This document shows positions 10,497 to 42,951 of a DNA stretch of 64,000 bases, piece after piece (within the stretch, counting starts at the first letter, position 1; each line of letters starts with the position of its first letter). A model generated the notes under the pieces. The model was given only the letters and a program-made list of their open reading frames with translations, made no database searches and had not been told where the DNA came from. This DNA comes from Escherichia coli (GTDB taxonomy: Bacteria; Pseudomonadota; Gammaproteobacteria; Enterobacterales; Enterobacteriaceae). The stretch lies in the NCBI RefSeq assembly GCF_050320075.1, contig NZ_CP190018.1; one strand, written 5' to 3'. The translations under genes and the position numbers were made by a program.

Positions 10497-10507
10497 ACAT
10501 CCCCCTT

Positions 10508-10861: not shown

Positions 10862-10872
10862 AGCGCCTCCCG

Positions 10873-11271: not shown

Positions 11272-11312
11272 GAACTCCTCCACAGAGAGAAAATGGCCCC
11301 GAAGGGCCATGA

Positions 11313-12338: not shown

Positions 12339-12393
12339 AAAAAAATCCCGTAAAAAAAGCCGCACAGGCGGCCTTTAGTGATGAAGGGTAAAG

Positions 12394-12726
12394 TTAAACG
12401 ATGCTGATTGCCGTTCCGGCAAACGCGGTCCGTTTTTTCGTCTCGTCGCTGGCAGCCTCCGGCCAGAGCACATCCTCATAACGGAACGTGCCGGACTTGT
12501 AGAACGTCAGCGTGGTGCTGGTCTGGTCAGCAGCAACCGCAAGAATGCCAACGGCAGCACCGTCGGTGGTGCCATCCCACGCAACCAGCTTACGGCTGGA
12601 GGTGTCCAGCATCAGCGGGGTCATTGCAGGCGCTTTCGCACTCAATACGCCGGGCGCGGTTGCGGTATGAGCCGGGTCACTGTTGCCCTGCGGCTGGTAA
12701 TGGGTAAAGGTTTCTTTGCTCGTCAT
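12394..12726 (-). CDS. D: Capsid decoration protein D
   Basis: [26 protein letters not shown]... 110 aa, matches lambda gpD. Confidence 0.95.
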
Positions 12727-23865: not shown

Positions 23866-24575
23866 CGCCTATAAGGCTCTCTTACCAGCCGCGCCCTAAC
23901 AGGCGCACACGATCTGACATTTGCATCCAACTTCGTTACTTACGGCCCGTAAACGGGCTGCCCGGATAGGGAATCGATAACTGCTCTCCCATTTTATCCT
24001 CTTCAAGCTGGTGCTTTATGTAGTCCTGTATCTTCGCCGTGTTCTTACCCACCGTATCGACATAGTACCCTCGGCACCAGAACTCCCTGTTTCTGTATTT
24101 GAATTTCAAATCCCCAAACTGCTCGTAAAGCATCAGACTGCTTTTCCCTTTCAGATATCCCATAAAGCCGGATACGCTCATTTTGGGTGGGATTTCCACA
24201 AGCATATGGATATGATCTGCGCAGCACTCTGCTTCCAGAATCCGTACGCTTTTCCACTCACACAGCTTTCTCAAAATACTGCCTATCGCCCTACGCTTCT
24301 CTCCGTAAAACGCCAGTCTTCGGTATTTCGGCGCAAAAACTATGTGATATTTACAGTTCCAGCGGGTGTGCACTAAGCTCTTTTCGTCCCCCATTGGGAC
24401 CCCCTTTTGATTTCTTGTTTGACACTTGCAGTTGCCAGACCGCAAGGTGTTTTAACAAATCAAAAGGGGTTTTAATAACTGGCTCAAAGCTGAAAGCTTT
24501 CCGGAACCCCCAGCCTAGCTGGGGGTTTTCTGTGCACAAAAAAACCAGCCTTTGGGGAGGCTGGCTAAATCAGGA
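23866..24575 (-). mobile_element. IS200 insertion sequence (boundaries approximate)
   Basis: Contains the IS200 TnpA gene plus end hairpins (GGCCCGTAAACGGGC near 23945; CCCCCAGCCTAGCTGGGGG and CCAGCCTTTGGGGAGGCTGG near 24500..24570). Confidence 0.8.
23936..24394 (-). CDS. tnpA: IS200/IS605-family Y1 (HUH) transposase TnpA
   Basis: MGDEKSLVHTRWNCKYHIVFAPKYRRLAFYGEKRRAIGSILRKLCEWKSVRILEAECCADHIHMLVEIPP... matches IS200 TnpA (152 aa). Confidence 0.93.
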   Translation of the reverse strand: MGDEKSLVHTRWNCKYHIVFAPKYRRLAFYGEKRRAIGSILRKLCEWKSVRILEAECCADHIHMLVEIPPKMSVSGFMGYLKGKSSLMLYEQFGDLKFKYRNREFWCRGYYVDTVGKNTAKIQDYIKHQLEEDKMGEQLSIPYPGSPFTGRK

Positions 24576-24664
24576 AACAAGCTGTTATATGATAATAACT
24601 ACGTTGCGATTCCAACATTTAAAATGTTAGACTAATGAGAATCAGACAGCAACTTTTCCTTTAA

Positions 24665-25057
24665 TTATTTCGAACAATCAGCATCCATCTCCAATCGGAG
24701 ATCCAACACCATCAGCATACCCTCCACTACGCCCTCAGCTTTCTGGAGCATCCTGCCAACCCAACAATCAGATCGCCCATGCTTACGTGCAAGCGCCATA
24801 AAAGTCATGCCGCCGACATAATAGTCCACCAATAAATCATGCAAATCGCTGTTGTTCTTTTTCAGACGGGCCATGCACCCGCAAATGATCATCGCGTCAT
24901 CGTCACAACATTGTGGGCGAGATTTTACTTTTGAAGGAATTAATCCCTTAAAACCGGCGGCAATGGACGACCAGGTCACATCTTCATGATTATTAGCCGC
25001 CCACGCTCCCCAACGCTCAAGAACCATCTGAATATCACGCATCAACTTACTCCACAA
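24665..25057 (-). CDS. Late-gene antiterminator Q (phage-82 / DLP12 QuuD type); possible start at the MRDIQM Met
   Basis: ORF (MWSKL)[62 protein letters not shown]... resembles QuuD. Confidence 0.8.
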
Positions 25058-25264
25058 AACTCAGACCAGAACGCCAATTACAAGCAAAAATCAACAAAAC
25101 AGTATTAGTTGATTGTTATCTCTGACTTCATACTCCTGCTCCTGTCAGGGTTTTGGCGTAATTCTTCAGTATTCGGTAATCGGTCAAAACAGAACCAGGG
25201 AAACGATATAAGCGCAGGCGCATCCAGCGGTGGCGAAGAAGTTCTGCCATATAAAACTCAAACA

Positions 25265-25627
25265 TCATTCATCTCCCTGTTCAGTGATGGTCAGTTCCAG
25301 CTTTCCACCTTTGACAACCGGCATCTTCACAACGCGGTAATCAACGACCTGAGCATCATCCAACCAGAAACCTGCTTTGGTGAGTGCGTCAAAAGCGGCC
25401 TTTTGTAGATTATCCAGGTCACGGCGACGGCGATCCGGCATGTGACACTCAATGCGGATTTTCACAGGCATAGCCAGGCCGATATCCAGCATTGCGTTTT
25501 TAATGATTCGGGCGACGTTTTCGCGGTATGCCTGCCCCTCTGCGCTGATGTGCGTGCGCCCGCGATTATGGCGGTAATAGCGATTATTGCTCGGCGGCCA
25601 GGGTAATGTGATATTGTAGGTATTCAC
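25265..25627 (-). CDS. rusA: Holliday-junction resolvase RusA
   Basis: 120-aa [57 protein letters not shown]... matches DLP12 RusA. Confidence 0.92.
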
Positions 25628-25914
25628 GCCTTAATTACCCCCTCTTTCAGCCAGATAACCTGCGTTCTCGCCATACCTTCCAGCGCGCATTCTTTTGCAT
25701 ATCCAGCGTCAACAAAATGCGTGCGACGGTCGATCTCGTCGTGACAGGCAGAACATGCAATGGTGGCAATCAGGTCTGGCGGTTTGATACCGGTACCGCA
25801 CAATCCAGCCAGCCGGATATGTGCCAGTACAGACGTTTCAGGATTGCCATTACATACGCCAGGGATTCTTACCTGGCATTCCCGACCACGCGCTGCTTTT
25901 CTCAAATCAGCCAT
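25624..25914 (-). CDS. YbcO-like prophage protein (Cys/His-rich, putative nuclease)
   Basis: [64 protein letters not shown]... resembles DLP12 YbcO (96 aa). Confidence 0.85.
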
Positions 25915-26077
25915 GATTCCTCCTTGCTGCCAGTCGCAACCATTTTTTATCAACCAGGCTGGCGGTATATCCGAGCAGTGTTGGTATTTCGGATGGTTTC
26001 AGCTCAGGCCTACGCTTACGACGATTTGGTACTTTGTAGATGTGTCCGTTCATGACACGAATAAGCGGTGTAGCCAT
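25907..26077 (-). CDS. NinE-family small protein
   Basis: Hand-translated 56-aa [59 protein letters not shown], overlapping the ybcO-like start (ATGGCTGA); position between ninB and ybcO. Confidence 0.6.
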   Translation of the reverse strand: MATPLIRVMNGHIYKVPNRRKRRPELKPSEIPTLLGYTASLVDKKWLRLAARRNHG

Positions 26078-26532
26078 TACGCCTCCTGCTTATCACGCAG
26101 CAGCTGGAACTCGCAGCTCTGCGGAATAGTCAGGTGGCAGCCAATATTCATCGCCCAGGCTTCAACCTTACACAGGAAGACATACATCTCTCCGGTATCA
26201 AGGTCGGAGGTATGGCGTAACGACTGGATAGTGGTGATATCACCGGTTACGACATCAACCAGGTCTTTGGTTTCATAACCGAGATATGTGTGTTTGAGAG
26301 CATCTTTTACCCAAGCTGGAGTGGCGAACGTTTTACCCCTGCTGATGAGGTATTCACTGATTTCGCTGTACCACATGTGGCTGAGTGCATTCTGGGAAAG
26401 ACTGCGTCTCTCGCGCCACGGTTTAAGCACCATGCGAAAGCATTTGCCGTCCTCCAGATAAGGCTGGATCTGCCGACCGATAGCGGTGAAGTTACCGCGA
26501 TGTAATTTGATGCCATCTTGTGGGAGGTTCAC
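26077..26532 (-). CDS. ninB: Recombination protein NinB
   Basis: 151-aa [61 protein letters not shown]... resembles NinB family proteins. Confidence 0.85.
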
Positions 26533-26726
26533 GCTTCACCTCCGCAGAGGTCAAACGTTGGATGCAAAGAATCGCAGGTGCATTTCTGCATCTGTGAAGA
26601 GAGAAGAGAGTTTAGATTGTATGTGCGCATAAACGTCCCCGTTTAGCGCAGAAGTCACCGGAGTTGTTCAGGCTCCAATGGCATGATTATGGCTGGTTGA
26701 TTATTGGAAATCAAATGTGCTGAAAA

Positions 26727-27236
26727 TTAGTCTGCCAAGTCTTCCTCAGTCGCAACTGGGTAATTCCAAATATCAAAAAAAGCTATAGCCTCCTGCCATT
26801 TGCTCCATAAGTTATCAAGTACTTGTGTAGGTTCCGTACTTTTAAAAACAGAATCAGCCGCATCACCGTTATGAACTTCCTCGTACAGTTCCATTATTAG
26901 CAGATTAACAAAGTACTGTTTCAACATTAATGCCTGATTACCTTCTTTCTGCTGGCTATCCTGCTTGATGATCTCCATCGCCCGTACTAGGCACCTGATG
27001 ATATCCGCTGCATCATTAACGCTCCATTCAGATCCGCGCTTATCTTTAGCTGATGAATTGGCTCTCTCAGCGCAAGCCTTTAAAGACTCATAAAGGTAAA
27101 CTCTATTTTGTAGCTGCAGCGCTTTTTTTGACGTGTACCAACTTGCAAGCGCCGACCCCGCTGCGGCTAATGTGCCAAACGCAGAAATACCTGCTGCTAT
27201 TGCACTTAAGTCGGCACTGTCAAAGTTCCACATCAT
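26727..27236 (-). CDS. Hypothetical protein with one N-terminal transmembrane segment (prophage cargo, unknown function)
   Basis: 169-aa ORF MMWNFDSADLSAIAAGISAFGTLAAAGSALASWYTSKK... then a hydrophilic acidic tail; low GC; no family recognised. Confidence 0.55.
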   Translation of the reverse strand: MMWNFDSADLSAIAAGISAFGTLAAAGSALASWYTSKKALQLQNRVYLYESLKACAERANSSAKDKRGSEWSVNDAADIIRCLVRAMEIIKQDSQQKEGNQALMLKQYFVNLLIMELYEEVHNGDAADSVFKSTEPTQVLDNLWSKWQEAIAFFDIWNYPVATEEDLAD

Positions 27237-27905
27237 CGTTACACCTTATATAAATACCCCTCAGTAATATCCAATAAGGTATGTGCACAATCAATATAAT
27301 TTTATCCGTATCGGCACATAGCGATTTGAAGGCTACTGGTAATAGTATATTTTAGATTATATCGTCCAGTTTACAGCACCCGTATTTTATGAAATGGACT
27401 CGCATATTACCCAAAAAATGCCAGCACTTCCGTCATCGTAGAATGCTGGCAGTATTTCTAACTAGTGACTTTATTGGAACAGATTCTGACGGAAATATGG
27501 TAACACTCGACTCCACTTATCATCCAGCCACGGCTGGAATTTTACATGTGCCGTTTATCTGGCGAGGATTGCTCGCGCTCTGTTGAGTATCTGGGGATAT
27601 TCATGCTCGATAGAAGTAAAGCGGCCGGCTTCGCGGTGCTCCGCAACCTGAAGTAGTGGAGTAACGTTCTGGCAGGCAGTTAACATCACATCACCTGCTC
27701 GCCATAACCAAGCACGTGCACAAAGTTTGTTATCAGTGAATTGTTTTGTGATTGGGTATTGTTGAACTGCTAGAACGAGAACGCCAGCATCCATTGGCAG
27801 TCCCTATAGTAAAACCATAGCTCAGGACGCTTCGTTCAGGATAGATAATTTTATTGTACTTACCTAACTTTCTTACTATAGCACGGTTGAAAAAGTGATT
27901 ATTAC

Positions 27906-29432
27906 TCAAAAATAAACCTCACCATCAACCATATATTTGAGAGTACTTATCGCCTGCTGGGCGGATATTATTTTCATTAAAGGATAGTGTTTAAAAACAA
28001 TGCCATTCATAAAATAGATATCACAGGTTTTATTATCTGTATTGATTATGATTTTTTCGAATGTTTTATAGGCAAGTGTACGACATAGCTCTCGCCCATT
28101 TTTACTGGTTAAGTCAATAGCATGAAAATCACCAAGTGAACTCACCGCTTTACTCTTCAAAGTTTTTAATGATACAGAAGCCCTTCGTAATTCCTTATCT
28201 AATACTCTGATTTTTTCTGCTATAGCGGTAACTTCAGGCGCAACAGATAATGCAGCAATTAAATTATTAATTTTCATCTGGAGCTCAATAATTTTCAACT
28301 CTAAAGTTTCATTAGCATCTTTCTTGTTTTCAACTGGTTGGATTTTACTACAATTAAAAAGCAACTCATTAATGATATTATAATCAACCAAATCTCTCTT
28401 TATTGATGGCCTGTCACATCGATGCAGTCTTCTCATCGGACAAACATAATAGCCATGCAAACTTCCAGATACCGCATGAACAATCATGGTATTACCACAA
28501 GCCTCGCACTTCATAACTGTTCGAAGTAGATTTATCAACATAGGATTTTTGCTACTATTGCTAATACCAAAAGGTGCCAACCGAATTTCCTGCACAGCGT
28601 AAAACAAATCATCTGATATGACTCTGGGATAATAGCCAGCGATTTCACTTATTCCTTTACCTCTTGCACGATATGAAGGTACGCATATACCTATCAGAGC
28701 TTTATTCGCTAATAATTTTTCAATTACAGAAGGTCCCCATGCACTTTCTTTTCCTGAGAAATTCTTTACAGCATGATCATTTAAATACTTGGCTATTGCA
28801 TTCAATGAGCGCCTTTCCATCCTGAGTTTAAAAATTAGCTCAATAGTTTTCACCCTGTCGGGGTCTGGAACAAAAGCCGTTCTTTTGTCATCCAATGAGA
28901 GCCATCTCGGACAAGACGCCGTCATAATCGTGCCTGACTCCAGTGCATCCTGCCGTTTTTTCTTCCATGATAATTTAACCCGACTTGACTTTATCTCGCT
29001 TTCTTCATTTGCCCTTTGTGCTATAAGTATGGCTTTTATTAATGAATATGGCTCATTCAATGAGTCAATATTATAGACTGTATTATCGCAAAGAGTTATA
29101 ACATCAATACCGTGATTCAAAATCAATTTCAGACGCTCAATCGCTTCACCGACTTTTTCTCTTGAAAGTCTGTCCAGACTTTCAACTAACAATGTAGTCC
29201 CTGGCAATATATAACCATGTTCTATAGCATCTAAAAATTCCGAAAAAGCTCCTGATTGTGCATGCTTTCCATTGAATGCGCTTAACCCCAAATCTTCATA
29301 CGTTACGGTATCAAGGTAATAATCACTATTTACCTTTAGCCATTCAGTAATAAGCCTTCTCTGGCGGTTTAATGAATCACCAGACATCTGACCTGGTGAT
29401 GAAAATCGCATATATGCTATGGCTTTTTTCAT
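27906..29432 (-). CDS. Large serine recombinase (resolvase/invertase catalytic domain plus recombinase and Cys-rich zinc-ribbon-like domains), DLP12 YbcK type
   Basis: 508-aa ORF MKKAIAYMRFSSPGQMSGDSLNRQRRLITEWL... (catalytic Ser in RFSSPGQ) with downstream CEACGN...CPMRRLHRCDRP cysteine cluster; low GC. Confidence 0.85.
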   Translation of the reverse strand: MKKAIAYMRFSSPGQMSGDSLNRQRRLITEWLKVNSDYYLDTVTYEDLGLSAFNGKHAQSGAFSEFLDAIEHGYILPGTTLLVESLDRLSREKVGEAIERLKLILNHGIDVITLCDNTVYNIDSLNEPYSLIKAILIAQRANEESEIKSSRVKLSWKKKRQDALESGTIMTASCPRWLSLDDKRTAFVPDPDRVKTIELIFKLRMERRSLNAIAKYLNDHAVKNFSGKESAWGPSVIEKLLANKALIGICVPSYRARGKGISEIAGYYPRVISDDLFYAVQEIRLAPFGISNSSKNPMLINLLRTVMKCEACGNTMIVHAVSGSLHGYYVCPMRRLHRCDRPSIKRDLVDYNIINELLFNCSKIQPVENKKDANETLELKIIELQMKINNLIAALSVAPEVTAIAEKIRVLDKELRRASVSLKTLKSKAVSSLGDFHAIDLTSKNGRELCRTLAYKTFEKIIINTDNKTCDIYFMNGIVFKHYPLMKIISAQQAISTLKYMVDGEVYF

Positions 29433-29687
29433 GGTGACACCTGCTAAAGTATGCTTTTATAAACCTTAGTGGTGAGATATGATTTTTGTTTAATTTTTAT
29501 TTAAAAAGACAATTAAGGTCACATTATCTTGAATATACAACAATAATCGTATTGCAATTTTCTTACACCATAATCTTGAAAGCACAAAAGAATGAATAAA
29601 AACTAAAGACATTAACAAAAAGCATAAAACGAGGCCCATATAAATATACGAACCTCCATATTTTAGTCGTTTAAAAACAAATTATTT

Positions 29688-30020
29688 TTAATGTGGCGTG
29701 CTTCGTGACAATAAATTAATAACCAACACACCGGCACAAATCAACATCATGCCTATAATGGCTGGCAGGTCCAATCGTTGGCCGAAAAATCCCCATGATA
29801 GTAAGCTAATCAGGACAATACCGACTCCTGACCAGATAGCATAAGCAATCCCTGTAGGAATATAAGCCAGCGTCTGAGCTAATAACCAGAATGATGCACA
29901 ATAACAAATAATTGTACCAACAGATGGCCATAACCGTGTAAAACCTTCTGAAAACTTCATTAAGGTTGTACCAATGACCTCTGCAAGTATTGCACCACCA
30001 AGATAAATATAAGGATTCAT
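29688..30020 (-). CDS. emrE: Small multidrug resistance (SMR) efflux protein EmrE
   Basis: MNPYIYLGGAILAEVIGTTLMKFSEGFTRLWPSVGTIICYCASFWLLAQTLAYIPTGIAYAIWSGVGIVLISLLSWGFFGQRLDLPAIIGMMLICAGVL... essentially identical to E. coli EmrE (110 aa). Confidence 0.95.
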   Translation of the reverse strand: MNPYIYLGGAILAEVIGTTLMKFSEGFTRLWPSVGTIICYCASFWLLAQTLAYIPTGIAYAIWSGVGIVLISLLSWGFFGQRLDLPAIIGMMLICAGVLVINLLSRSTPH

Positions 30021-30087
30021 AGCATATTCTTTCCTGTTCAAACTGGAGAGAATTGTACTACAGTTTGAACTCAACTCACCTGTTTCA

Positions 30088-30390
30088 TCATTGTGTACCC
30101 ATTGATGTTCTTTTATATACCCTCAATACCCGTTTCATCGCGGCACTCTGGCGACACTCCTTAAAAATCAAATTCGTGCTCACCTTTCCTTCCCATTCTT
30201 CTCTGGTAGCGAACCGATAATACACCGTTCGCCAGACCTTACCATCAACGACCAGGATTCCTGCCCGCGCCATTTTAGCCGCAGCCTGATTTATGCTGGT
30301 TACCGTTGCGCCTGTTACCGCGGCAACGTCCTGCGCACAGAATTTCTTATGAGTCCCCAGGTAATGAATAATTGCCTCTTTGCCCGTCAT
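30088..30390 (-). CDS. ren: Ren protein
   Basis: 100-aa ORF MTGKEAIIHYLGTHKKFCAQDVAAVTGATVTSINQAAAKMARAGILVVDGKVWRTVYYRFATREE... matches lambda Ren. Confidence 0.9.
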   Translation of the reverse strand: MTGKEAIIHYLGTHKKFCAQDVAAVTGATVTSINQAAAKMARAGILVVDGKVWRTVYYRFATREEWEGKVSTNLIFKECRQSAAMKRVLRVYKRTSMGTQ

Positions 30391-31088
30391 ACCCTTGCTC
30401 CTTTCAGCCCAAACTTAGCTTTGATTTCTGCGATCTTCGCCAGAGCCTGAGCACGATTTAGAGGTCTACCGCCCATGACAGGAAGTTGTTTTACTGGTTC
30501 AGGTATAGCCTCACCACGGTTAATTCGTGCGGTCATACAGGACAGTTCATCGGCAGCCTTGCGCCGTAATTCCGCGTCAGTCAACGCATTGGCCCGCATG
30601 TTCTGATACAGGTTGGTAACCAGCCAGTAGTGCGCGTTTGATTTCCACGGATAAGACTCTGCATCCGGATACAGCCCGCGCTTCCGGCAATACTCGTAAA
30701 CCATATCAACCAGCTCGCTGGCGTTTGGCAGCCCAGCGGTAACGGATGCTTCTTCCCGGCACCAGGCGACAAACTGCCCGGGTGATGGCAGGAATGGTCG
30801 ATTCTGCCGACGGGCTACGCGCATTCCAGCGTTAACCTGTTCCATTGTGGTGATCCCGTTTTCCCGAAAAGCCAGCACCCACTGGCGGCGGATTTCGTTC
30901 AGTTCATTCTGGTCACGGTTAGCCAGGCTCGCCGGGAAAGTTGCCAGTAACTGGCTGAACACACCGTTGATGATCTGCGCTACCTGCTGTACCTGTGGCT
31001 TTTCGTCGTACTGTTCCGGCATGTTGTTGGCGATCCGACGCATCTGCTCACGGTCAAAGTTAACCATCTGTGCGGCGATGTTTTTCAT
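30387..31088 (-). CDS. P: Replication protein P (DnaB helicase loader)
   Basis: 233-aa ORF MKNIAAQMVNFDREQMRRIANNMPEQYDEKPQVQQVAQIINGVFSQLLATFPASLANRDQNE... matches lambda P. Confidence 0.95.
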   Translation of the reverse strand: MKNIAAQMVNFDREQMRRIANNMPEQYDEKPQVQQVAQIINGVFSQLLATFPASLANRDQNELNEIRRQWVLAFRENGITTMEQVNAGMRVARRQNRPFLPSPGQFVAWCREEASVTAGLPNASELVDMVYEYCRKRGLYPDAESYPWKSNAHYWLVTNLYQNMRANALTDAELRRKAADELSCMTARINRGEAIPEPVKQLPVMGGRPLNRAQALAKIAEIKAKFGLKGARV

Positions 31089-32104
31089 AGATCCACCCCG
31101 TAAATCCAGTCAGTGTTTGTCAGGTCGAGTTTTGGTTTGCCGACTGTCACGCCAGCCTGTTGCTTGTTCCGGTTGATTTCGAGCTGGGTCCACTTGTCGC
31201 GGAGTTTGGCCGGACTCAGCACGTTACCGGACCAGAAGTTGTCCTGGCAGGCCCAGCGGAACAGTACACACATGTCGCGGTGGTTACGTCCATCACGTTC
31301 ACGCATCAGACGGATATCGTTAGCCCACCCTGCAAAATTCGGTTTTCTGGCTGATGGCGCGATGGTCTTCACCATGTCAAACATCCACTCTGCGGCGGTC
31401 AGGTCTTCTGCTGTCCCCCACTTGCTGCCGCTCTGAATTGCAGCATCCGGTTTCACCACAGGAAGATCGTTTTCTGGTTGGTCAGAGGATTCGCCAGAAT
31501 TCTCGGACGAAAAAGGTTTTATATTGTCTTTTGTTAGTTTGTCTTTTGTGTTTACCTGATTCGGGTAAACGCCTTTACCTGATTTGGGTAAACTTTTTTT
31601 ACCTGATTCAGGTAAATTTACCTCTTTCAGGTAAACTTTATTTTTCTTACCTGATTCGGGTAATGTTGACCATTCACTGACCACATTATTAATGCCGGTA
31701 TTCCGCCCGCTCTGAATAAAAATCCCACGCTTTACCAGAACACTTTTTGCAGCAGAACACTTGTGCGGCAATATCCCGGTTAATTCGGAAAGTTGCTCGT
31801 TGCTAACCCAATCCAGTTTTTTATTAAAGCCATATGTTTTGCGCATGACAGCCAGAAAGACCAGAAGCTGGTGCTGTGTTAATCCGGCCAGCATCACAGC
31901 TTCCAGCAACTCATTTGCAATGCGCGTATAACCATCATCGAGATCTGCCACGCGCGGCTCCTTTTGTGCCTCATCCGGCACTGGAAAATTGAATATCTCA
32001 GCAGTGTTTGCCATAATTCCTTCCGCAATGAGTGCGTTACGATTTGCACCTGAAAGTCGGCTCTGTTCCCGCAGACCGGCTTTCGCCATTTCTGAACCTG
32101 TCAT
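31085..32104 (-). CDS. O: Replication initiator O (non-lambda N-terminal iteron-binding domain, lambda-like C-terminal P-interaction domain); alternative start at 32014
   Basis: 339-aa ORF whose C-terminal ~100 aa match lambda O; start overlaps the upstream ydaT-like stop in ATGA; ori iterons inside the gene. Confidence 0.88.
   Translation of the reverse strand: MTGSEMAKAGLREQSRLSGANRNALIAEGIMANTAEIFNFPVPDEAQKEPRVADLDDGYTRIANELLEAVMLAGLTQHQLLVFLAVMRKTYGFNKKLDWVSNEQLSELTGILPHKCSAAKSVLVKRGIFIQSGRNTGINNVVSEWSTLPESGKKNKVYLKEVNLPESGKKSLPKSGKGVYPNQVNTKDKLTKDNIKPFSSENSGESSDQPENDLPVVKPDAAIQSGSKWGTAEDLTAAEWMFDMVKTIAPSARKPNFAGWANDIRLMRERDGRNHRDMCVLFRWACQDNFWSGNVLSPAKLRDKWTQLEINRNKQQAGVTVGKPKLDLTNTDWIYGVDL
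31545..31660. repeat. Replication origin iterons inside O: about five ~18-bp palindromic repeats (TTACCTGATTCGGGTAAA-like) plus AT-rich tract
   Basis: Direct repeats seen in sequence: TACCTGATTCGGGTAAAC, TACCTGATTTGGGTAAAC, TACCTGATTCAGGTAAAT, ACCTCTTTCAGGTAAAC, TACCTGATTCGGGTAATG; position equivalent to lambda ori within O. Confidence 0.8.
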
Positions 32105-32646
32105 ATTGCCCCCAGCATGGTGGTAACCATCGCCATTAATGGACCAGCCAGATCCGGGTCCACACGAAACATCGACACAATACCTTCACTCATTTCCTTC
32201 AGTTTCTGGTGGCGTGGTGCGTTGAGAATGACCGCCTGCTTTGCCTCACAGAGTTCCTTTTCCATTTCAGCCAGCCGAGCCATGAAGCTATCCTGCTCAA
32301 CCAGGTGGCCGCGATATTCCAGCGGTAGTACCGCCAGAATTGCCGGGGTCAGTTCACGCACGTTATTTCGGTATTTTTCAGAATCGAATTTGTTATCGAG
32401 GAAGCGGAACAGCTTCTGGCGTGCACGGCTGACATCATCAGGGAAATCGATGGTGCCGCCGCCCTGCTCCCGATACTCATTCACAATGAGTGCGGCAACA
32501 ACATCCTGATTATCTGCAGCCGACCACGCGCGAACGGCATCACGGATTTTTTCGTGGCCTGGCACCTGTTTTATTTGAGAACGATTTATCACCGCAGTCG
32601 GGCTAAATCCGCTAGTCTGTTGGTATGTAAGTGGTTGCATAGTCAT
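32101..32646 (-). CDS. YdaT-like protein (Rac-prophage ydaT family) in the cII position
   Basis: 181-aa ORF containing ...ELTPAILAVLPLEYRGHLVEQDSFMARLA..., resembling Rac YdaT as I recall it. Confidence 0.6.
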   Translation of the reverse strand: MTMQPLTYQQTSGFSPTAVINRSQIKQVPGHEKIRDAVRAWSAADNQDVVAALIVNEYREQGGGTIDFPDDVSRARQKLFRFLDNKFDSEKYRNNVRELTPAILAVLPLEYRGHLVEQDSFMARLAEMEKELCEAKQAVILNAPRHQKLKEMSEGIVSMFRVDPDLAGPLMAMVTTMLGAI

Positions 32647-32670
32647 TGCCTTATCAGTTAACGCCGCAGT

Positions 32671-32904
32671 TTAGGCGGCAGAATTACTCGCGTTAAACAA
32701 TGGTGCAAGGTCGGGACGAATATCTGCTGGTTTAATCTTTCCACCAGTGGCTGAGACAATTTTCATTACATAGCGGGCATCAATTCCGCCACCGTGTAGC
32801 CAACGCCAAACAGTGGGCTGGGCTACACCGCATAGATCTGCCAGTCGTTTTTGACTACCTGTAATACTGATTGCGAGTTGAATGGTTTGATTTGTCATTA
32901 TCAA
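32671..32904 (-). CDS. Cro/YdaS-like HTH DNA-binding protein (lytic-side regulator)
   Basis: 77-aa ORF ...QKRLADLCGVAQPTVWRWLHGGGIDARYVMKIVSATGG... (helix-turn-helix), divergent from the repressor gene. Confidence 0.75.
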   Translation of the reverse strand: MIMTNQTIQLAISITGSQKRLADLCGVAQPTVWRWLHGGGIDARYVMKIVSATGGKIKPADIRPDLAPLFNASNSAA

Positions 32905-33008
32905 TTCCTATTGGTATTACAATGAATGGATAATAGCAATGCGTATTAATCCAATCAATAGCAAAACGTGTTTTGACCATCAATACGCAAGCGTATAAAT
33001 TAAAACTT
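32905..33008. promoter_or_regulatory. Immunity-region divergent promoter/operator region (OR equivalent) with ATACGC/GCGTAT half-sites including the palindrome ATACGCAAGCGTAT (32983..32996)
   Basis: AT-rich 104-bp spacer between divergent cro-like and cI-like genes; repeated half-sites seen in sequence; operator assignment is inferred. Confidence 0.5.
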
Positions 33009-33701
33009 ATGAAAAAAGAAACTCTTGCTGATCGCTTAAACCTAGCGATGGAACAATCTGGAATGTCTCAAGGCGCTCTTGCAAAGGCGTCTGGCGTAGC
33101 TCAACCCACAATCTGGAGACTGACAAGCGGCAACGCACGCGGCTCAACAAAAATTGTTGAAATAGCTAATGCATTGGGTGTTCGAACAGAGTGGCTCTCA
33201 TCAGGCATAGGCCCGATGAGAAATGACGGTCAACAATCAGGGAAGCCTGCTGTCAACCATTCCAAATACTTCAAAATTGACGTTCTTGATATAGAAGTCA
33301 GTGCTGGGCCGGGTGTCATCAACCGTGAGTTTGTAGAAGTCCTACGCTCGGTTGAGTACTCGTTTGACGATGCTCGTCACATGTTCGATGGCAGGAAGGC
33401 AGAAAATATCCGCATCATTAACGTACGCGGTGACAGCATGTCAGGAACGATCGAACCAGGTGATCTTCTGTTCGTTGATATCACTGTTAAATCTTTCGAC
33501 GGTGATGGTATCTATGCGTTTCTGTACGACGACACAGCCCATGTAAAGCGCCTGCAAATGATGAAGGATAAGCTGCTGGTTATCTCTGATAACAAGAGCT
33601 ACTCACCGTGGGACCCGATCGAAAAAGACGAAATGAATCGGGTATTTATATTTGGGAAAGTTATTGGGAGTATGCCACAGACATATAGAAAACATGGGTA
33701 G
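33009..33701 (+). CDS. CI-type prophage repressor (N-terminal HTH, C-terminal S24 LexA-like autopeptidase domain)
   Basis: MKKETLADRLNLAMEQSGMSQGALAKASGVAQPTIWRLTSGN... plus C-terminal RGDSMSGTIEPGDLLFV...VKRL motifs and a candidate Ala-Gly cleavage site (VSAGPG); not lambda cI. Confidence 0.88.
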   Translation: MKKETLADRLNLAMEQSGMSQGALAKASGVAQPTIWRLTSGNARGSTKIVEIANALGVRTEWLSSGIGPMRNDGQQSGKPAVNHSKYFKIDVLDIEVSAGPGVINREFVEVLRSVEYSFDDARHMFDGRKAENIRIINVRGDSMSGTIEPGDLLFVDITVKSFDGDGIYAFLYDDTAHVKRLQMMKDKLLVISDNKSYSPWDPIEKDEMNRVFIFGKVIGSMPQTYRKHG

Positions 33702-33807
33702 ATTATTAATGACAGATTTCATCAAGATAACCAGATGATGTTTTGGTGAGACATGCTGACATCCTCATAATTTATAGAATGGATGTTTCAAGCAGAGCTT
33801 AAGGTAT

Positions 33808-35415
33808 ATGGATATGTCAAAAAAAATTTTTGAATTCAAAAATTACCCAATAGTCTTTATTGGCTCAGGCATTTCAAAAAGATATTTAGAGAACTACCCA
33901 ACGTGGGAAGAGCTATTAAACGAGTATTGGAAAATAACAAATCCCACAAATGATTTCTATAGTTATCTTTTAACAATAAAAGAATCACATAAAAATAACA
34001 GTGATAATGATATCGATCATAAGATTTATACAGAGGCAGCAAGTAAAATTGAAAATGATTACAATCTATTGTTTAGGACTGGCAAATTAAAATTAAATGG
34101 ACTAGATGCCAAGAGGGTTTTTAGTGAAGATATTTCACCATTTAAATACGCCATATGCCAAAGATTTTCTAATAACACAATCAGAAAGGATGTAAATCTT
34201 GATGAATTAGCATCATTTAAAACATTAATAAAAAAGGCCAAGATAATCATCACTACAAATTATGATGCTTTCATAGAAAATTTACTTCAAGAGCAAAATG
34301 TAACTCCAAAACTCTATATTGGAAATAATGGTTTTTTCGAAGATACTATTGGCTGGAGTGAGTTATACAAAATACATGGTGATATAAAGGATCCACACTC
34401 AATAATCATAAATAAAGATGATTACGAAAAATATGACAACAAATCTATACTCATTAGTGCCAAGATACTATCTAACATGATTAAAAATCCAATAGTTTTT
34501 CTTGGATATTCTTTAACTGACAGGAATGTAAAGAAACTTCTTTCTGATTTTTCCTCACAACTACCTAGAGAAGATGGTCGAAAATCAGCTGAAAGAATAA
34601 TTTTGATTGAATATAAAGAGAATGAACAGGAAGTAGTACCAAAACAGATTACCGATCAACAGCTACAAATTACATATACATCTGTTAAAACAGATAACTA
34701 TAAACAGATCTATGATGAGATCAGTGCTGTTGATGAAGGGCTCTCACCTTATGATGTTTTAAGGTATCAAAGAGCCATTAAAACACTTATCATTAATGAG
34801 GGTGAAAAAGGGCACTTAGATACTCTATTGGTTTCACCTTCTGACTTAGACAGACTTGAAGAAAGTGTTAAACAAGGAAAAAATTTAGTTGTTGCTCTAG
34901 GCGATAAAAAGTATGTATTCACACAAGTTAAAGAAATAAATTATCTTGAAGACTACTTATTTAATAAAAATGAAATATCTAATAAATTAGCTATAGATTT
35001 CATATTAGGTTCAGTAAACTCATTACAACTTCCATTTTCAAAAACTATAACCTCATGTAATTTGAAAGAGTTAAGTTTGCCAGCTAAATATGTGTTAAAA
35101 CTAAATCAACGCATTGAACGCCACGGAAAACTAGACGACTTGCTCAATAAAATCACCTTAGATAAAATCAATGCAAATAAAATTTACACCAACATCAAAG
35201 ATATAAAGGATGCAAAGTTCAAAAAGTACAAAGAATTGTCTATAGTCATTAAGAACATAAAAAATATCCCCAAAGAGGAGATTGAAGATTATGTTAAAAA
35301 AGAAGCGTTTGTTCAATTCAAGGCATGCGACGTTGACAATTTAAAAACCCAGTATAGGAAACTATTTCTTGCCTACGACTTGTTGATTCATGGAAATGTT
35401 GAAAAGATAAATTAA
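33808..35415 (+). CDS. SIR2-like (sirtuin-family, SIR2_2-type) domain protein with uncharacterised C-terminal half; candidate single-gene anti-phage defence protein in the rexAB-equivalent position
   Basis: 535-aa ORF, about 28-30% GC; motifs FIGSGISK (res 17-24), IIITTNYD (N151), YKIHGD (H190), IVFLGYSLTD (229-238) with Asn-His spacing of 39 as in defence-associated SIR2 domains; directly downstream and co-oriented with the repressor. Confidence 0.7.
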   Translation: MDMSKKIFEFKNYPIVFIGSGISKRYLENYPTWEELLNEYWKITNPTNDFYSYLLTIKESHKNNSDNDIDHKIYTEAASKIENDYNLLFRTGKLKLNGLDAKRVFSEDISPFKYAICQRFSNNTIRKDVNLDELASFKTLIKKAKIIITTNYDAFIENLLQEQNVTPKLYIGNNGFFEDTIGWSELYKIHGDIKDPHSIIINKDDYEKYDNKSILISAKILSNMIKNPIVFLGYSLTDRNVKKLLSDFSSQLPREDGRKSAERIILIEYKENEQEVVPKQITDQQLQITYTSVKTDNYKQIYDEISAVDEGLSPYDVLRYQRAIKTLIINEGEKGHLDTLLVSPSDLDRLEESVKQGKNLVVALGDKKYVFTQVKEINYLEDYLFNKNEISNKLAIDFILGSVNSLQLPFSKTITSCNLKELSLPAKYVLKLNQRIERHGKLDDLLNKITLDKINANKIYTNIKDIKDAKFKKYKELSIVIKNIKNIPKEEIEDYVKKEAFVQFKACDVDNLKTQYRKLFLAYDLLIHGNVEKIN

Positions 35416-35919
35416 ATAAACGCCCCGTACAAAGCGATGGCGGGGCTAATAAGTCATTTATGTATCATTTAGCAACTGACTAAAAAAATACACATAAGAA
35501 CTCAGACTACCAATATTCGATTAAATTTGCTGCCAACCTACCGAGCTCACCACAACCCGATGCCCCTCTGTCACGAGGCACATTAAAGCTGTACAAATTT
35601 CAGCCACACCAATAAGTCTTCATACTCTTTTTTATAAAAATTCATTTAATTATCAATCAGAACAAGTATATCAAACATTATCAATACTAATTGCTATTGA
35701 CTACACCAATAGCTATTGCTATTGTCATGCTATTGCATCGATGTTGGTATCACAAAATTTATAACTTCACCGTTGCGATGACCGCTTAGATCCGCAGCTT
35801 GAATTTCAGCAGGCTCCGGGGAGTGCGAGGGGTGAAGCGGACGCGTGAACGTCGGTGTGACCAGCTGAAATCAACTCAACACTTCATACCTCAGTCGCTT
35901 CAACGAGGCGACTTAGTTA

Positions 35920-36209
35920 TGACAACCGGCGGCCATCCACCGCCTGAATACGCGCAGAAGTCTCTATATGTTCAGCAGCCCAGCTTACGGGCAGGAGTTT
36001 TTATGGTTCATCAACATTACGGAACGCAGACCGTTAATCGAGGTGCGGTCATGCCAGGAATGCTGGTCAAACACAAAGATGGTACCTGGACTGCATCAGC
36101 TAATTTACGCGGACGGCTATATCTGCATCGCGGCATCGAGCGCACTTATACCCGTGATTTGCTCGTGGAAGTTTTTCTCGACGGACGCGGTAACGGCCTG
36201 AATCACTAA
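35920..36209 (+). CDS. Hypothetical protein (96 aa from ATG; a TTG-initiated 136-aa version starts at 35799)
   Basis: [38 protein letters not shown]... with upstream GAGG; sits where lambda has N-ral-cIII-kil but resembles none of them. Confidence 0.35.
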
Positions 36210-40266: not shown

Positions 40267-40485
40267 ATGTACTTGACACTTCAGGAGTGGAACGCACGCC
40301 AGCGACGCCCAAGAAGCCTTGAAACAGTTCGTCGATGGGTGCGCGAATGCAGGATATTCCCTCCTCCGGTTAAGGATGGAAGAGAATATCTGTTCCACGA
40401 ATCAGCGGTAAAGGTTGACTTAAATCGACCAGTAACAGGTAGCCTTTTGAAGAGGATCAGAAATGGGAAGAAGGCGAAGTCATGA
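40267..40485 (+). CDS. xis: Excisionase Xis
   Basis: 72-aa ORF MYLTLQEWNARQRRPRSLETVRRWVRECRIFPPPVKDGREYLFHESAVKVDLNRPVTGSLLKRIRNGKKAKS matches lambda Xis. Confidence 0.95.
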   Translation: MYLTLQEWNARQRRPRSLETVRRWVRECRIFPPPVKDGREYLFHESAVKVDLNRPVTGSLLKRIRNGKKAKS

Positions 40486-41533
40486 GCGCCGGGATTTACC
40501 CCCTAACCTTTATATAAGAAACAATGGATATTACTGCTACAGGGACCCAAGGACGGGTAAAGAGTTTGGATTAGGCAGAGACAGGCGAATCGCAATCACT
40601 GAAGCCATACAGGCCAACATTGAGTTATTTTCAGGACACAAACACAAGCCTCTGACAGCGAGAATCAACAGTGATAATTCCGTTACGTTACATTCATGGC
40701 TTGATCGCTACGAAAAAATCCTGGCCAGCAGAGGAATCAAGCAGAAGACACTCATAAATTACATGAGCAAAATTAAAGCAATAAGGAGGGGGCTGCCTGA
40801 TGCTCCACTTGAAGACATCACCACAAAAGAAATTGCGGCAATGCTCAATGGATACATAGACGAGGGCAAGGCGGCGTCAGCCAAGTTAATCAGATCAACA
40901 CTGAGCGATGCATTCCGAGAGGCAATAGCTGAAGGCCATATAACAACAAACCCTGTCGCTGCCACTCGCGCAGCAAAATCAGAGGTAAGGAGATCAAGAC
41001 TTACGGCTGACGAATACCTGAAAATTTATCAAGCAGCAGAATCATCACCATGTTGGCTCAGACTTGCAATGGAACTGGCTGTTGTTACCGGGCAACGAGT
41101 TGGTGATTTATGCGAAATGAAGTGGTCTGATATCGTAGATGGATATCTTTATGTCGAGCAAAGCAAAACAGGCGTAAAAATTGCCATCCCAACAGCATTG
41201 CATGTTGATGCTCTCGGAATATCAATGAAGGAAACACTTGATAAATGCAAAGAGATTCTTGACGGAGAAACCATAATTGCATCTACTCGTCGTGAACCGC
41301 TTTCATCCGGCACAGTATCAAGGTATTTTATGCGCGCACGAAAAGCATCAGGTCTTTCCTTCGAAGGGGATCCGCCTACCTTTCACGAGTTGCGCAGTTT
41401 GTCTGCAAGACTCTATGAGAAGCAGATAAGCGATAAGTTTGCTCAACATCTTCTCGGGCATAAGTCGGACACCATGGCATCACAGTATCGTGATGACAGA
41501 GGCAGGGAGTGGGACAAAATTGAAATCAAATAA
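40463..41533 (+). CDS. int: Integrase Int (tyrosine recombinase)
   Basis: 356-aa ORF MGRRRSHERRDLPPNLYIRNNGYYCYRDPRTGKEFGLGRDRRIAITEAIQANIELFSGHKHKPLTARINSD... matches lambda Int. Confidence 0.95.
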   Translation: MGRRRSHERRDLPPNLYIRNNGYYCYRDPRTGKEFGLGRDRRIAITEAIQANIELFSGHKHKPLTARINSDNSVTLHSWLDRYEKILASRGIKQKTLINYMSKIKAIRRGLPDAPLEDITTKEIAAMLNGYIDEGKAASAKLIRSTLSDAFREAIAEGHITTNPVAATRAAKSEVRRSRLTADEYLKIYQAAESSPCWLRLAMELAVVTGQRVGDLCEMKWSDIVDGYLYVEQSKTGVKIAIPTALHVDALGISMKETLDKCKEILDGETIIASTRREPLSSGTVSRYFMRARKASGLSFEGDPPTFHELRSLSARLYEKQISDKFAQHLLGHKSDTMASQYRDDRGREWDKIEIK

Positions 41534-41667: not shown

Positions 41668-42951
41668 GTGAACACATTTTCAGTTTCCCGTCTGGCGCTG
41701 GCATTGGCTTTTGGCGTGACGCTGACCGCCTGTAGCTCAACACCGCCCGATCAACGTCCTTCTGATCAAACCGCGCCTGGTACCTCTTCTCGCCCGATTC
41801 TGTCGGCAAAAGAAGCGCAGAATTTCGATGCTCAACACTATTTTGCATCCCTGACACCAGGTGCTGCAGCGTGGAATCCTTCCCCGATTACCCTGCCTGC
41901 ACAACCTGACTTTGTTGTCGGCCCGGCGGGTACTCAAGGTGTAACGCATACCACGATTCAGGCGGCGGTAGATGCGGCAATTATCAAGCGTACCAACAAG
42001 CGCCAGTATATTGCCGTGATGCCTGGTGAGTATCAGGGAACGGTGTATGTCCCTGCCGCTCCGGGTGGAATTACTCTGTACGGTACAGGTGAAAAACCGA
42101 TTGATGTGAAAATTGGGCTTTCCCTTGATGGGGGCATGAGCCCAGCCGACTGGCGTCACGACGTCAACCCACGCGGCAAATATATGCCGGGTAAACCAGC
42201 GTGGTATATGTACGATAGCTGCCAGAGCAAACGCAGCGACAGCATTGGCGTGCTCTGTTCTGCGGTCTTCTGGTCACAAAACAATGGCCTGCAACTGCAA
42301 AACCTGACCATCGAAAACACACTGGGCGATAGCGTAGATGCGGGTAACCATCCGGCGGTGGCACTGCGTACTGATGGCGACAAAGTGCAGATCAATAACG
42401 TCAATATTCTCGGTCGCCAGAATACCTTCTTTGTCACCAACAGCGGTGTGCAAAACCGTCTGGAAAGCAACCGTCAGCCGCGTACCCTGGTGACTAACAG
42501 CTACATTGAAGGGGATGTGGATATCGTTTCTGGTCGCGGCGCAGTGGTGTTCGATAACACCGAATTCCGCGTGGTGAACTCCCGTACCCAGCAAGAAGCG
42601 TATGTGTTTGCACCGGCTACGCTGTCCAACATTTACTACGGTTTCCTCGCCGTAAACAGCCGTTTCAATGCTTCCGGGGATGGCGTGGCGCAACTGGGCC
42701 GCTCGCTGGATGTTGATGCCAATACCAACGGTCAGGTAGTGATCCGTGATAGCGCCATCAACGAAGGTTTTAACACGGCGAAACCGTGGGCCGATGCGGT
42801 GATTTCCAATCGTCCGTTTGCGGGTAATACTGGCAACGTTGATGATAACGACGAAGTACAGCGCAATCTGAATGACACTAACTACAACCGCATGTGGGAA
42901 TACAATAACCGCGGCGTGGGTAGCAAAGTGGTTGCAGAGGCGAAGAAGTAA
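41668..42951 (+). CDS. ybhC: Pectinesterase-family outer-membrane lipoprotein / putative acyl-CoA thioester hydrolase YbhC
   Basis: 427-aa ORF MNTFSVSRLALALAFGVTLTACSSTPPDQRP... with lipobox; gene order matches the E. coli gal-bio interval. Confidence 0.9.
   Translation: MNTFSVSRLALALAFGVTLTACSSTPPDQRPSDQTAPGTSSRPILSAKEAQNFDAQHYFASLTPGAAAWNPSPITLPAQPDFVVGPAGTQGVTHTTIQAAVDAAIIKRTNKRQYIAVMPGEYQGTVYVPAAPGGITLYGTGEKPIDVKIGLSLDGGMSPADWRHDVNPRGKYMPGKPAWYMYDSCQSKRSDSIGVLCSAVFWSQNNGLQLQNLTIENTLGDSVDAGNHPAVALRTDGDKVQINNVNILGRQNTFFVTNSGVQNRLESNRQPRTLVTNSYIEGDVDIVSGRGAVVFDNTEFRVVNSRTQQEAYVFAPATLSNIYYGFLAVNSRFNASGDGVAQLGRSLDVDANTNGQVVIRDSAINEGFNTAKPWADAVISNRPFAGNTGNVDDNDEVQRNLNDTNYNRMWEYNNRGVGSKVVAEAKK

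Follow-up and report, generated by a model that had tools for sequence, protein, structure and literature searches.

In a lambda-like prophage of Escherichia coli, integrated beside ybhC at what is also the lambda attachment locus, the gene encoding the replication initiator O contains a series of short palindromes whose sequence is not that of the lambda iterons, raising the question of whether they form a replication origin and, if so, to which specificity class it would belong. The analysis covered a stretch of 64,000 nucleotides (contig NZ_CP190018.1), here called the window. The genes of the prophage follow the lambda order, with the repressor, cro, a gene at the cII position, O, P and ren, the gene at the cII position encoding a YdaT-family protein. 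O is listed as an open reading frame from 31085 to 32104, and RefSeq relatives are annotated in this longer form up to 32104 (339 aa); alignment to the O proteins of lambda and SEN34 places the start at 32014, with AAGGA a few nucleotides upstream (Table 1). RefSeq names the O gene just "replication protein" and leaves the origin unmarked.

Five exact matches to TTACC-N7-GGTAA, of 17 bp each, were found inside the O gene, which lies on the minus strand, and together they span 112 bp (31552-31663). A repeat finder assigned the five copies to one family with start-to-start distances of 23, 24, 19 and 29 bp, and the same array was reported by Tandem Repeats Finder. When up to one mismatch was allowed, the whole 64-kb window gave seven matches against a mean of 1.2 in shuffled sequences, and none of 100 shuffles reached seven; the two matches beyond the cluster carry one mismatch apiece, and no exact copy occurs elsewhere in the window. 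The copies are palindromes of 17-19 bp separated by spacers of 2-12 bp, with the consensus TTTACC-YGAATCA-GGTAAA, and the array starts one codon past the conserved SEW motif that ends the N-terminal domain of O.

The initial annotation had placed about five tandem palindromes of about 18 bp, written TTACC-N6-GGTAA, at 31545-31660 within the O coding sequence. The five palindromic copies were recovered, all of them within the open reading frame of O, whose start at 32014 is supported by homology. The details needed correction: the unit is not a strict 18-bp tandem repeat, the N6 pattern has zero copies since the true spacer is 7 bp, and the interval holds the five copies in the main, the last one ending at 31663. 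The AT-rich tract, which had been said to follow the repeats, does so only when read in the direction of O, a minus-strand gene; in plus-strand numbering it precedes the repeats and falls outside that interval.

Table 1. Features of the proposed prophage origin and of the adjoining replication genes (positions in the 64-kb window).
Feature	Position	Strand	Description
P gene, DnaB helicase loader	30387..31088	-	PF06992, 8e-62; 4-nt overlap with the O stop
O gene, replication initiator	31085..32014	-	309 aa from the conserved MANTAE start
O C-terminal domain, presumed P-interaction	31085..31510	-	138/141 residues identical to lambda O (98%), plus stop
Lambda-like flank past the AT-rich tract	31479..31509		Imperfect dyad around an EcoRI site, O-sense GAGAATTCTGGCGAATCCTCTGACC
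AT-rich tract, presumed strand-opening site	31510..31549		40 bp, 22.5% GC (window average 50%)
Iteron 5	31552..31568		O-sense TTACCCGAATCAGGTAA; exact match; adjoins the AT-rich tract
Iteron 4	31575..31591		O-sense TTACCCAAATCAGGTAA; exact match
Iteron 3	31599..31615		O-sense TTACCTGAATCAGGTAA; exact match
Iteron 2	31618..31634		O-sense TTACCTGAAAGAGGTAA; exact match
Iteron 1	31647..31663		O-sense TTACCCGAATCAGGTAA; exact match; first in the O reading direction, most distal to the AT-rich tract
O N-terminal origin-binding domain (predicted)	31667..32014	-	aa 1-116; 48% identity to lambda O

The position of the repeats relative to the AT-rich tract was compared with that in other phages. In the O sense the tract begins ACACAAAAGACA, exactly as in five other origin types among the nine origins compared, while the beginnings found in SEN34 (CCACAAAAGACA) and mEp237 (ACACCCAATACA) differ. 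The lambda origin likewise has dyad-symmetric iterons of 17-19 bp at the same site in the O gene and a 40-bp AT tract beginning ACACAAAAGACA, the allele of the tract here being different from that of lambda. From iteron 1 to iteron 5, the centres lie 103.5, 74.5, 55.5, 31.5 and 8.5 bp from the start of the tract, and the lambda centres lie at 8.5, 31.5, 55.5 and 75.5 bp, values also found in ES18, HK446, P22 and mEp043. Iterons 5, 4 and 3 are thus at exactly the distances of lambda iterons 4, 3 and 2, and iteron 2 is 1 bp off lambda iteron 1, whereas iteron 1 has no lambda counterpart, there being five copies here and four in lambda; the centre-to-centre spacing is accordingly 29, 19, 24 and 23 bp, against 20, 24 and 23 bp in lambda. 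Near-identity to lambda begins at the flank beyond the tract (29/30 in each 30-nt interval from 31504 downwards), and megablast matches to lambda-type O genes stop at query positions 467-480, which correspond to 31551-31564 in the window. The classical lambda literature ascribes to this flank a role in the origin, and the flank with its EcoRI-site dyad may have such a role here.

The O reading frame matches Pfam PF04492 (Phage_rep_O, 1.1e-33, 116 bits for a cut-off of 28.7) and PHROG 277 ("replication initiation O-like", 5e-163). Its N-terminal domain was modeled by AlphaFold2 with pLDDT values of 80-95 over aa 30-116 and the topology H-H-H-H-beta-beta, the first 26 residues having low confidence, and the recognition helix is predicted at about aa 83-95 (PHKCSAAKSVLVK). 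Searching the PDB with the predicted fold retrieved CRP/FNR and MarR winged-helix domains and a plasmid Rep-DNA complex, all weakly (E >=4e-3), which is consistent with a winged helix-turn-helix as the predicted fold class and points to no specific relative. The O sequence itself had no match in the PDB, and no solved structure of O-DNA recognition was found by sequence search. The P protein shares 228 of its 233 residues with lambda P (98%) and belongs to Pfam PF06992 (Phage_lambda_P). A divergent N-terminal domain joined to a lambda-like C-terminus, as the initial annotation had it, is what the identities to lambda O describe (48% over aa 1-116, 98% over the last 141 aa), and since both this C-terminus and P are nearly identical to their lambda counterparts, the P/DnaB-loading interface has probably been retained.

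That lambdoid origins can differ in their iterons has been a textbook principle since 1979. When eight other O homologues were compared, differences in the palindrome went along with differences in the N-terminal domain of O, specifically in the predicted recognition helix. The iterons are TCCCTC..GAGGGA in lambda and ES18, TTAGC-N7-GCTAA in SEN34 and HK446, GTCTC-N7-GAGAC in N7, GTCAC-N7-GTGAC in mEp043, TTCCCG-N4-CGGGAA in mEp237 and TTACC-N5-GGTAA in P22, which makes at least seven iteron types on one conserved scaffold, and to each type belongs a recognition-helix motif that matches it. The comparison with other lambdoid phages that had been proposed as a check returned different palindromes in the same place, and this co-variation favors the earlier suggestion that the origin specificity differs from that of lambda. 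Klebsiella phages and the IMG/VR loci L075-L083 have the same N-terminal domain, iterons and AT-tract start, joined to an O C-terminal domain that is not of lambda type; the gene after O in three annotated Klebsiella phages encodes a P-like or DnaC-like loader.

Taken together, these features suggest, with a probability that we put at about 0.9, that the locus serves a lambda-like prophage as its replication origin, with the lambda architecture and a recognition sequence of its own. Lambda-type origins have at least three to four dyad iterons of about 19 bp, placed about 20-24 bp apart between the codons of the N- and C-terminal domains of O, an AT-rich stretch of some 40 bp that adjoins the array at its P-proximal end, an initiator with a Phage_rep_O N-terminal domain and, directly downstream, a loader gene P matched to the O C-terminal domain, and each of these is found here. 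The iteron sequence and the N-terminal domain differ from those of the lambda specificity class. The locus would then be an O/P-dependent origin of lambda type and of a different specificity class, its function being inferred.

An origin of this kind may also have come down by true descent and be an inactive relic in this particular prophage. The DLP12-like cargo genes emrE and ybcK are present, strain YZLc1-3 has a near-identical prophage that carries pseudogenes and IS insertions in other parts, and in related genomes it is exactly this region that has decayed, inter-iteron deletions having left 3 or 4 copies and a frameshifted O, and one relative having an IS1 in the AT-rich tract. In the present copy, by contrast, O (309 aa), P (233 aa), the five iterons and the AT-rich tract are all intact, and 15 sequenced genomes that were deposited as phage records match the region at 97-98% identity. 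We consider decay of this copy fairly improbable.

Being part of a coding sequence, the repeats could instead be merely a duplicated LPESGK-like peptide that links the two domains of O, with no function as DNA. The array does encode a low-complexity linker rich in lysine, serine and glycine (TLPESGKKNKVYLKEVNLPESGKKSLPKSGKGVYPNQVN) between two folded domains, and slippage can create such peptide repeats. However, the repeat persists as DNA across two codon frames, that of iteron 2 differing from that of iterons 1, 3 and 4, and gives the different peptides LPESGK and VYLKEVN; every copy is palindromic, which a peptide repeat does not need; and the linker has low identity to that of lambda (15/41 aligned residues) although the DNA architecture is conserved, the distances to the AT-rich tract matching those of the experimentally defined O-binding sites of lambda. 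In an alignment of 10 relatives from E. coli and Klebsiella, the variable columns number 2 of 50 in the arms against 26 of 62 in the centers and spacers (Fisher p = 2e-6), and third codon positions vary at 0 of 14 sites in the arms against 82 of 116 (71%) in the N-terminal domain (p = 2e-7), both p values assuming independent columns although the aligned sequences are related. The arms of iterons 3, 4 and 5 are invariant in all relatives and those of iteron 1 vary in 1 of 10 columns, while five iterons with unchanged arms were present in 77 of 80 IMG/VR relatives, the other three having one arm-base change. A purely coding role is hardly credible in the face of invariant synonymous arm positions, and the alignments indicate that the iterons are under selection as DNA, not as peptide.

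Palindromes of 17-19 bp are also typical operators of many dimeric regulators, and the copies could be sites for another protein, such as a phage repressor, a Cro-like protein or a host factor; yet the operators of the repressor and of Cro are expected at their own divergent genes, about 1.3 kb away (32671-33701), the palindrome tracks the O N-terminal domain across phages with differing immunity regions, and the exact motif is confined to the cluster, making such a role very improbable. Hairpins in RNA or DNA, for example terminators, were rejected just as firmly: the region 31300-32200 has no terminator-like site and no Rfam match, the terminator, promoter and Rfam scans being negative or at chance level, and the single-strand fold, far better than that of shuffled sequences (z = -5.3), was not counted as evidence because five similar palindromes produce it automatically.

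For the array as a lambda-type origin, we propose a mechanism in which O binding, strand opening, P/DnaB recruitment and the activity of this copy are all inferred from lambda. O dimers would bind the 17-19-bp TTTACC-N7-GGTAAA palindromes through the N-terminal winged-helix domain, with one half-site per subunit; the four copies proximal to the AT-rich tract would correspond one-to-one to the four lambda iterons, and the fifth would stand 29 bp further out; in the Stx phages the extra iterons are required. The O-DNA complex would bend the DNA and melt the neighboring 40-bp AT-rich tract in supercoiled DNA, the lambda-identical C-terminal domain of O would recruit the lambda-identical P carrying host DnaB, and host chaperones would then free the helicase. 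The lambda origin mechanism has been published (PMC5043065, PMC7466680), including the opening of the corresponding 40-bp region upon O binding (PMC5043065).

The same origin type was found in 2296 of 5426 complete E. coli genomes (about 42%), some of them with 2-3 copies, and in 15 sequenced phages, including 4A7, 1W, 3W, Perceval and the PhiR series. A lambda-style origin whose recognition sequence differs from that of lambda is ordinary biology that was to be expected, and in E. coli it is very common. Its weight beyond annotation is limited: what it adds is the precise position and consensus sequence of the origin in a very common prophage module. Because so many genomes carry this origin type, some of them more than once, it is conceivable that the shared specificity causes cross-activation or interference between co-resident prophages. 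The series of iteron types could guide studies of DNA recognition by O and, for prophages of the same or of different origin types, could help to predict whether their replication is compatible or subject to cross-talk. The origin of phage 82 is said to have been published by Moore et al. in 1979 and by Grosschedl and Hobom in 1979, and a relationship to it is possible because the late region of the prophage is DLP12-like. A literal search for six iteron strings in 8 million papers gave no hit, no earlier publication describing the present iteron sequence was found, and a lambdoid-phage paper (Genome Research 2025) covers O-only replication modules and does not describe this iteron type.

Several features set the origin apart from that of lambda. 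The lambda iteron is TCCCTC-N5-GAGGGA (consensus ATCCCTCAAAACGAGGGA) instead of TTACC-N7-GGTAA, and the recognition helix reads VKRCNEAKLEL in lambda O and PHKCSAAKSVL here. Lambda has an A4 tract inside its iterons, whereas the iteron centers here are without A4 and the A-tracts lie in the spacers between iterons; bending of the DNA may therefore be organized differently. The lambda origin type also occurs in 434, 21, ES18 and the Stx phages, the latter having six lambda-type iterons (PMC7466680).

Among classical phages, the closest in the O N-terminal domain is P22, whose gene 18 product shares 65% identity over aa 19-115. The half-site arms TTACC and GGTAA are the same, the recognition-helix motifs are similar (PTKCSTAK in P22, PHKCSAAK here) and the geometry of the iteron centers is common to both origins. 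In contrast, the P22 spacer is 5 bp against 7 bp in all five copies here, so that the P22 half-sites are 2 bp closer; of the four P22 copies several are imperfect; and the C-terminal domain of gp18 is unrelated to lambda O, its partner being gp12, a DnaB-type helicase, rather than P. With a 7-bp spacer and with a C-terminal domain and partner of the lambda O and P types, the prophage origin falls outside the P22 specificity class. P22 gene 18 has been reported to contain four repeats of about 20 bp of its own, and such proteins are said to vary with origin specificity (PMC8022706). That the two origins are told apart only through the 2-bp difference in half-site spacing seems rather doubtful; if true, it would be a natural change of specificity of a winged-helix initiator through dimer geometry and not through base contacts.

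HK446 and SEN34 (both HK97-like), N7, mEp043 and mEp237 (phi80-like) have, at the same gene position, a Phage_rep_O-type N-terminal domain with 3-5 palindromes and an AT tract directly after it, the half-sites being TTAGC (HK446 and SEN34), GTCTC, GTCAC and TTCCCG, respectively. The partner of O also varies among them, being a P-like loader, a DnaB-like helicase, a primase/helicase or a DnaC-like ATPase. In plasmid origins the iterons are mostly direct repeats that lack a palindrome, are bound by Rep monomers and are located outside rep, and handcuffing or copy control is central to them. The plasmid origins of pSC101, F, R6K and P1 nonetheless also have an initiator-specific repeat array by an AT-rich region that is opened, and their initiator is likewise of winged-helix type, and lambda-type and iteron plasmid origins have been compared before (PMC5043065).

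Inside the O gene, the minus-strand replication initiator gene of a lambda-like prophage, a pattern search identified five exact copies of a 17-bp palindrome, TTACC-N7-GGTAA, within 31551-31664, most of which extend to the 19-bp form TTTACC-N7-GGTAAA. The initial annotation had described about five palindromic tandem units of ~18 bp with a 6-bp spacer. The repeats and their symmetry were recovered on re-examination with small corrections: the spacer is 7 bp long, the N6 pattern matching none of the copies, and the start-to-start distances obtained by a repeat search (23, 24, 19 and 29 bp) indicate spaced palindromes rather than strict 18-bp units. With at most one mismatch allowed, the pattern occurs seven times in the 64-kb window, compared with a mean of 1.2 in shuffled sequences, none of which reached seven (0/100). 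The two matches beyond the cluster look like chance occurrences, since each carries one mismatch. A lone half-site-like sequence, CTTTACCAGAA, located at 31730-31740 within the N-domain coding region, separated by ~67 bp from the most AT-distal copy (iteron 1), is probably also due to chance. An AT-rich tract adjoins the repeats, and its position is reported in the table with the other features.

Features of the origin region and of the surrounding prophage
Feature	Coordinates	Strand	Observations
Iterons (five copies)	starts 31552, 31575, 31599, 31618, 31647	+	exact pattern match
AT-rich tract	31510-31549		adjoins array; 40 bp, 22.5% GC vs 50% window average (composition)
O ORF	31085..32104	-	contains iteron array (ORF list)
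P homologue	30387-31088		next gene downstream of O; PF06992 at 8e-62; 228/233 residues identical to lambda P
cII-position gene	32101-32646	-	YdaT family, PF06254 at 2.6e-29; PHROGs 'CII-like transcriptional activator' 7e-66
SIR2-family gene	33808-35415	+	535 aa; adjoins CI-like repressor, at position of lambda rexAB
emrE	29688-30020	-	multidrug transporter; inside prophage, between ren and ybcK
DLP12-like region	~24600-29500		nin/rusA/Q and lysis genes essD-rrrD-rzpD, after emrE/ybcK
int	~40463-41533		prophage end
ybhC	~41668-42951		beside int

As previously proposed, the array lies within the O coding sequence, in an ORF matching Pfam Phage_rep_O (1.1e-33) and PHROG 277 'replication initiation O-like' (5e-163). 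Judged by alignment with the O proteins of lambda and further homologues, the conserved start is the ATG at 32014 (MANTAE..., 309 aa), with AAGGA a short distance ahead of it; this methionine is the start in all homologues (lambda, P22, SEN34 and the Klebsiella phages). RefSeq relatives annotate an ATG at 32104 (339 aa) that overlaps the YdaT-like gene's stop codon within ATGA, and the start is ambiguous between these two positions. A ren-like gene and then emrE follow the P homologue, and upstream of O lie genes for the YdaT-family protein (cII position) and a Cro-like HTH protein, and a divergently oriented LexA-like (S24) repressor gene. The Pfam 'toxin' name of the YdaT-family gene conflicts with a cII-like role. 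The SIR2-family gene is probably a prophage-borne anti-phage gene, its product matching PDC-S25, a candidate defence family of PADLOC (6e-236), and ThsA of Thoeris in its SIR2 part (1.5e-21). The prophage appears to be related to the defective K-12 prophage DLP12 and, unlike it, to be intact, although it is integrated beside ybhC, at the attachment locus of lambda. The element corresponds in E. coli YZLc1-3 to a lambda-like prophage whose terminal integrase adjoins ybhC, on the side of lambda attachment; the window shares 99.99% identity with that chromosome (NZ_CP123240), except for one IS66 insertion there. This 2.7-kb IS66-family (ISCro1) element (9926-12624 of locus L093) splits an IS200-type transposase gene; the corresponding site of the window (~24124-24131) is without insertion.

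Decayed versions of the origin exist in other genomes, and the window's copy could conceivably be an inactive relic as well. Deletions between iterons (L011 1852-1940, L094, L095) leave four or three copies: one of 24 bp is in frame and leaves four, while those of 23 bp (four left) and 43 bp (three left) frameshift O. In a further locus (L042, ~1990-2740), an IS1 element with InsA and InsB ORFs is inserted in the AT-rich tract. In the window, however, O, P, iterons and AT tract are all intact, and the region is 97-98% identical to its counterpart in 15 sequenced phage genomes, which argues against decay. The palindromes might otherwise be sites for another regulator, or hairpins or terminators, as the strong single-strand fold of the region (z = -5.3) could suggest; this fold, however, follows automatically from five similar palindromes. 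Scans of the region found no terminator-like site or Rfam match, and a search of 29000-36000 detected neither an oop-like RNA nor any further Rfam family. Moreover, the place expected for operators is the interval separating repressor and cro, ~1.3 kb away, and the palindrome changes together with O rather than with the immunity genes. A pure peptide repeat is at odds with the use of two reading frames, with dyad-symmetric copies, with synonymous sites that do not vary and with iteron distances like those of lambda.

Three copies are read in the frame TTA-CCN-NAA-TCA-GGT-AAR (LPxSGK) and two in another, giving VYLKEVN and VYPNQVN; a DNA palindrome kept across two frames is not what a peptide repeat would preserve. 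Selection on the repeats as DNA was assessed by aligning the window with nine diverged relatives, comprising IMG/VR loci (84-90% N-domain identity) and three Klebsiella phages (~79% DNA identity). Variable columns amount to 2/50 in the iteron arms, 11/35 in their centres and 15/27 in the inter-iteron spacers (arms vs centres and spacers, Fisher p = 2e-6). At third codon positions, none of 14 arm bases varies, against 82/116 over the N-domain (p = 2e-7). Both p-values are only indicative, the columns coming from related sequences, although the contrast is drawn within one sequence set. The arms are invariant in the three AT-proximal iterons and carry one change in each of the two distal ones, in agreement with lambda, whose AT-proximal iterons are the most important ones (PMC7466680). 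Five copies are present in 79 of 80 IMG/VR relatives, L011 having four, and in 3 of the 80 loci one copy has a single arm-base change, the arms being otherwise unchanged.

Classical lambda/phi80/82 hybrid work assigned origin specificity to the N-terminus of O and contact with P to its C-terminus. In the Klebsiella phages KO-TP1, ST11-VIM1phi8.2 and GZ7 (L090-L092) and in loci L075-L083, conservation runs from the N-domain through the five iterons and ~30 bp into the AT tract, and beyond this point the O C-domain is unrelated and non-lambda; the recombination junction lies inside the AT-rich tract. The gene after O in the three annotated phages encodes a P-like or a DnaC-like (AAA ATPase) loader. 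Thus, the N-domain travels with the iterons and the C-domain with the helicase loader. Comparison with other lambdoid phages revealed differing palindromes at the equivalent position of O homologues: TCCCTC-N5-GAGGGA (lambda, ES18), TTAGC-N7-GCTAA (SEN34 and HK97-like HK446), GTCTC-N7-GAGAC (N7), GTCAC-N7-GTGAC (mEp043), TTCCCG-N4-CGGGAA (phi80-like mEp237) and TTACC-N5-GGTAA (P22 gene 18). AlphaFold2 predicts the N-domain as a winged helix-turn-helix (pLDDT 80-95 over aa 30-116), with a beta hairpin after the helices at 72-79 and 83-95; fold matches in the PDB, to CRP/FNR and MarR winged-helix domains and a plasmid Rep-DNA complex, are weak (E 4e-3 or worse). Across homologues, the half-site tracks the start of the predicted recognition helix: P(H/T)KCS with TTACC (window and P22), HTH(C/V) with TTAGC (SEN34 and HK446, otherwise quite different), VKRCNEAK with TCCCTC (lambda and ES18) and RQ(N/K)VNKAK with GTCTC or GTCAC (N7 and mEp043). 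This joint change supports the earlier inference that origin specificity differs from that of lambda, and the group of O-type proteins is reported to vary with origin-binding specificity, P22 gene 18 having its own four ~20-bp repeats (PMC8022706).

The overall interpretation of the initial annotation is supported. The anatomy, homology and conservation of the origin were observed directly. By analogy with lambda (PMC5043065, PMC7466680), O dimers would bind the palindromes in a complex that bends the DNA, supercoiled DNA would open at the adjacent 40-bp AT-rich region, and O-P-DnaB complexes would form and then be remodelled by host chaperones; the same analogy suggests that the window's copy is active.

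At a cut-off of at least 95% identity over at least 80% of its length, the N-domain and iteron segment is present in 2296 of 5426 complete E. coli genomes, some with up to three copies; it also occurs in 15 phage records (97-100%) and six Klebsiella phages (~79%). None of the inspected records carrying the TTACC-N7-GGTAA type has an annotated origin, and the iteron strings appear in no paper of the searched literature. The origin may be identical to that of phage 82, which together with the phi80 origin is the subject of papers from 1979-1981. It has been established for decades that iterons lie inside O, that N-domains are heterospecific and that C-domains can be exchanged, and the origin in the window is a previously unremarked example of this well-known kind.

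Alignment with lambda O confirmed the divergent N-terminus and lambda-like C-terminus first proposed: identity is 48% over the N-domain (aa 1-116), 15/41 aligned residues in the poorly conserved linker, whose codons make up the iterons and AT tract, and 98% over the C-terminal 141 aa. DNA identity is 30-70% across the N-domain and iterons and 29/30 per 30-nt window from ~31504 downwards; in megablast, similarity to the O genes of lambda, 434 and Stx phages ends at 31551-31564, the array edge. In the O direction the layout is that of lambda, the end of the N-domain (SEW) being followed by the iterons, ACACAAAAGACA with the AT-rich tract, and GAGAATTCTGGCGAATCCTCTGAC. Measured from where the AT tract starts, the iteron centres lie at 8.5, 31.5, 55.5, 74.5 and 103.5 bp, compared with 8.5, 31.5, 55.5 and 75.5 bp in lambda, ES18, HK446, P22 and mEp043; thus, four of the five copies match lambda's four iterons, one being shifted by 1 bp, and the copy at 31647-31663 is extra. 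These five phages share identical centre distances despite unrelated iterons, and a common AT-tract start, ACACAAAAG; the phi80-like mEp237 differs, with an even 21-bp iteron spacing and another AT-tract start.
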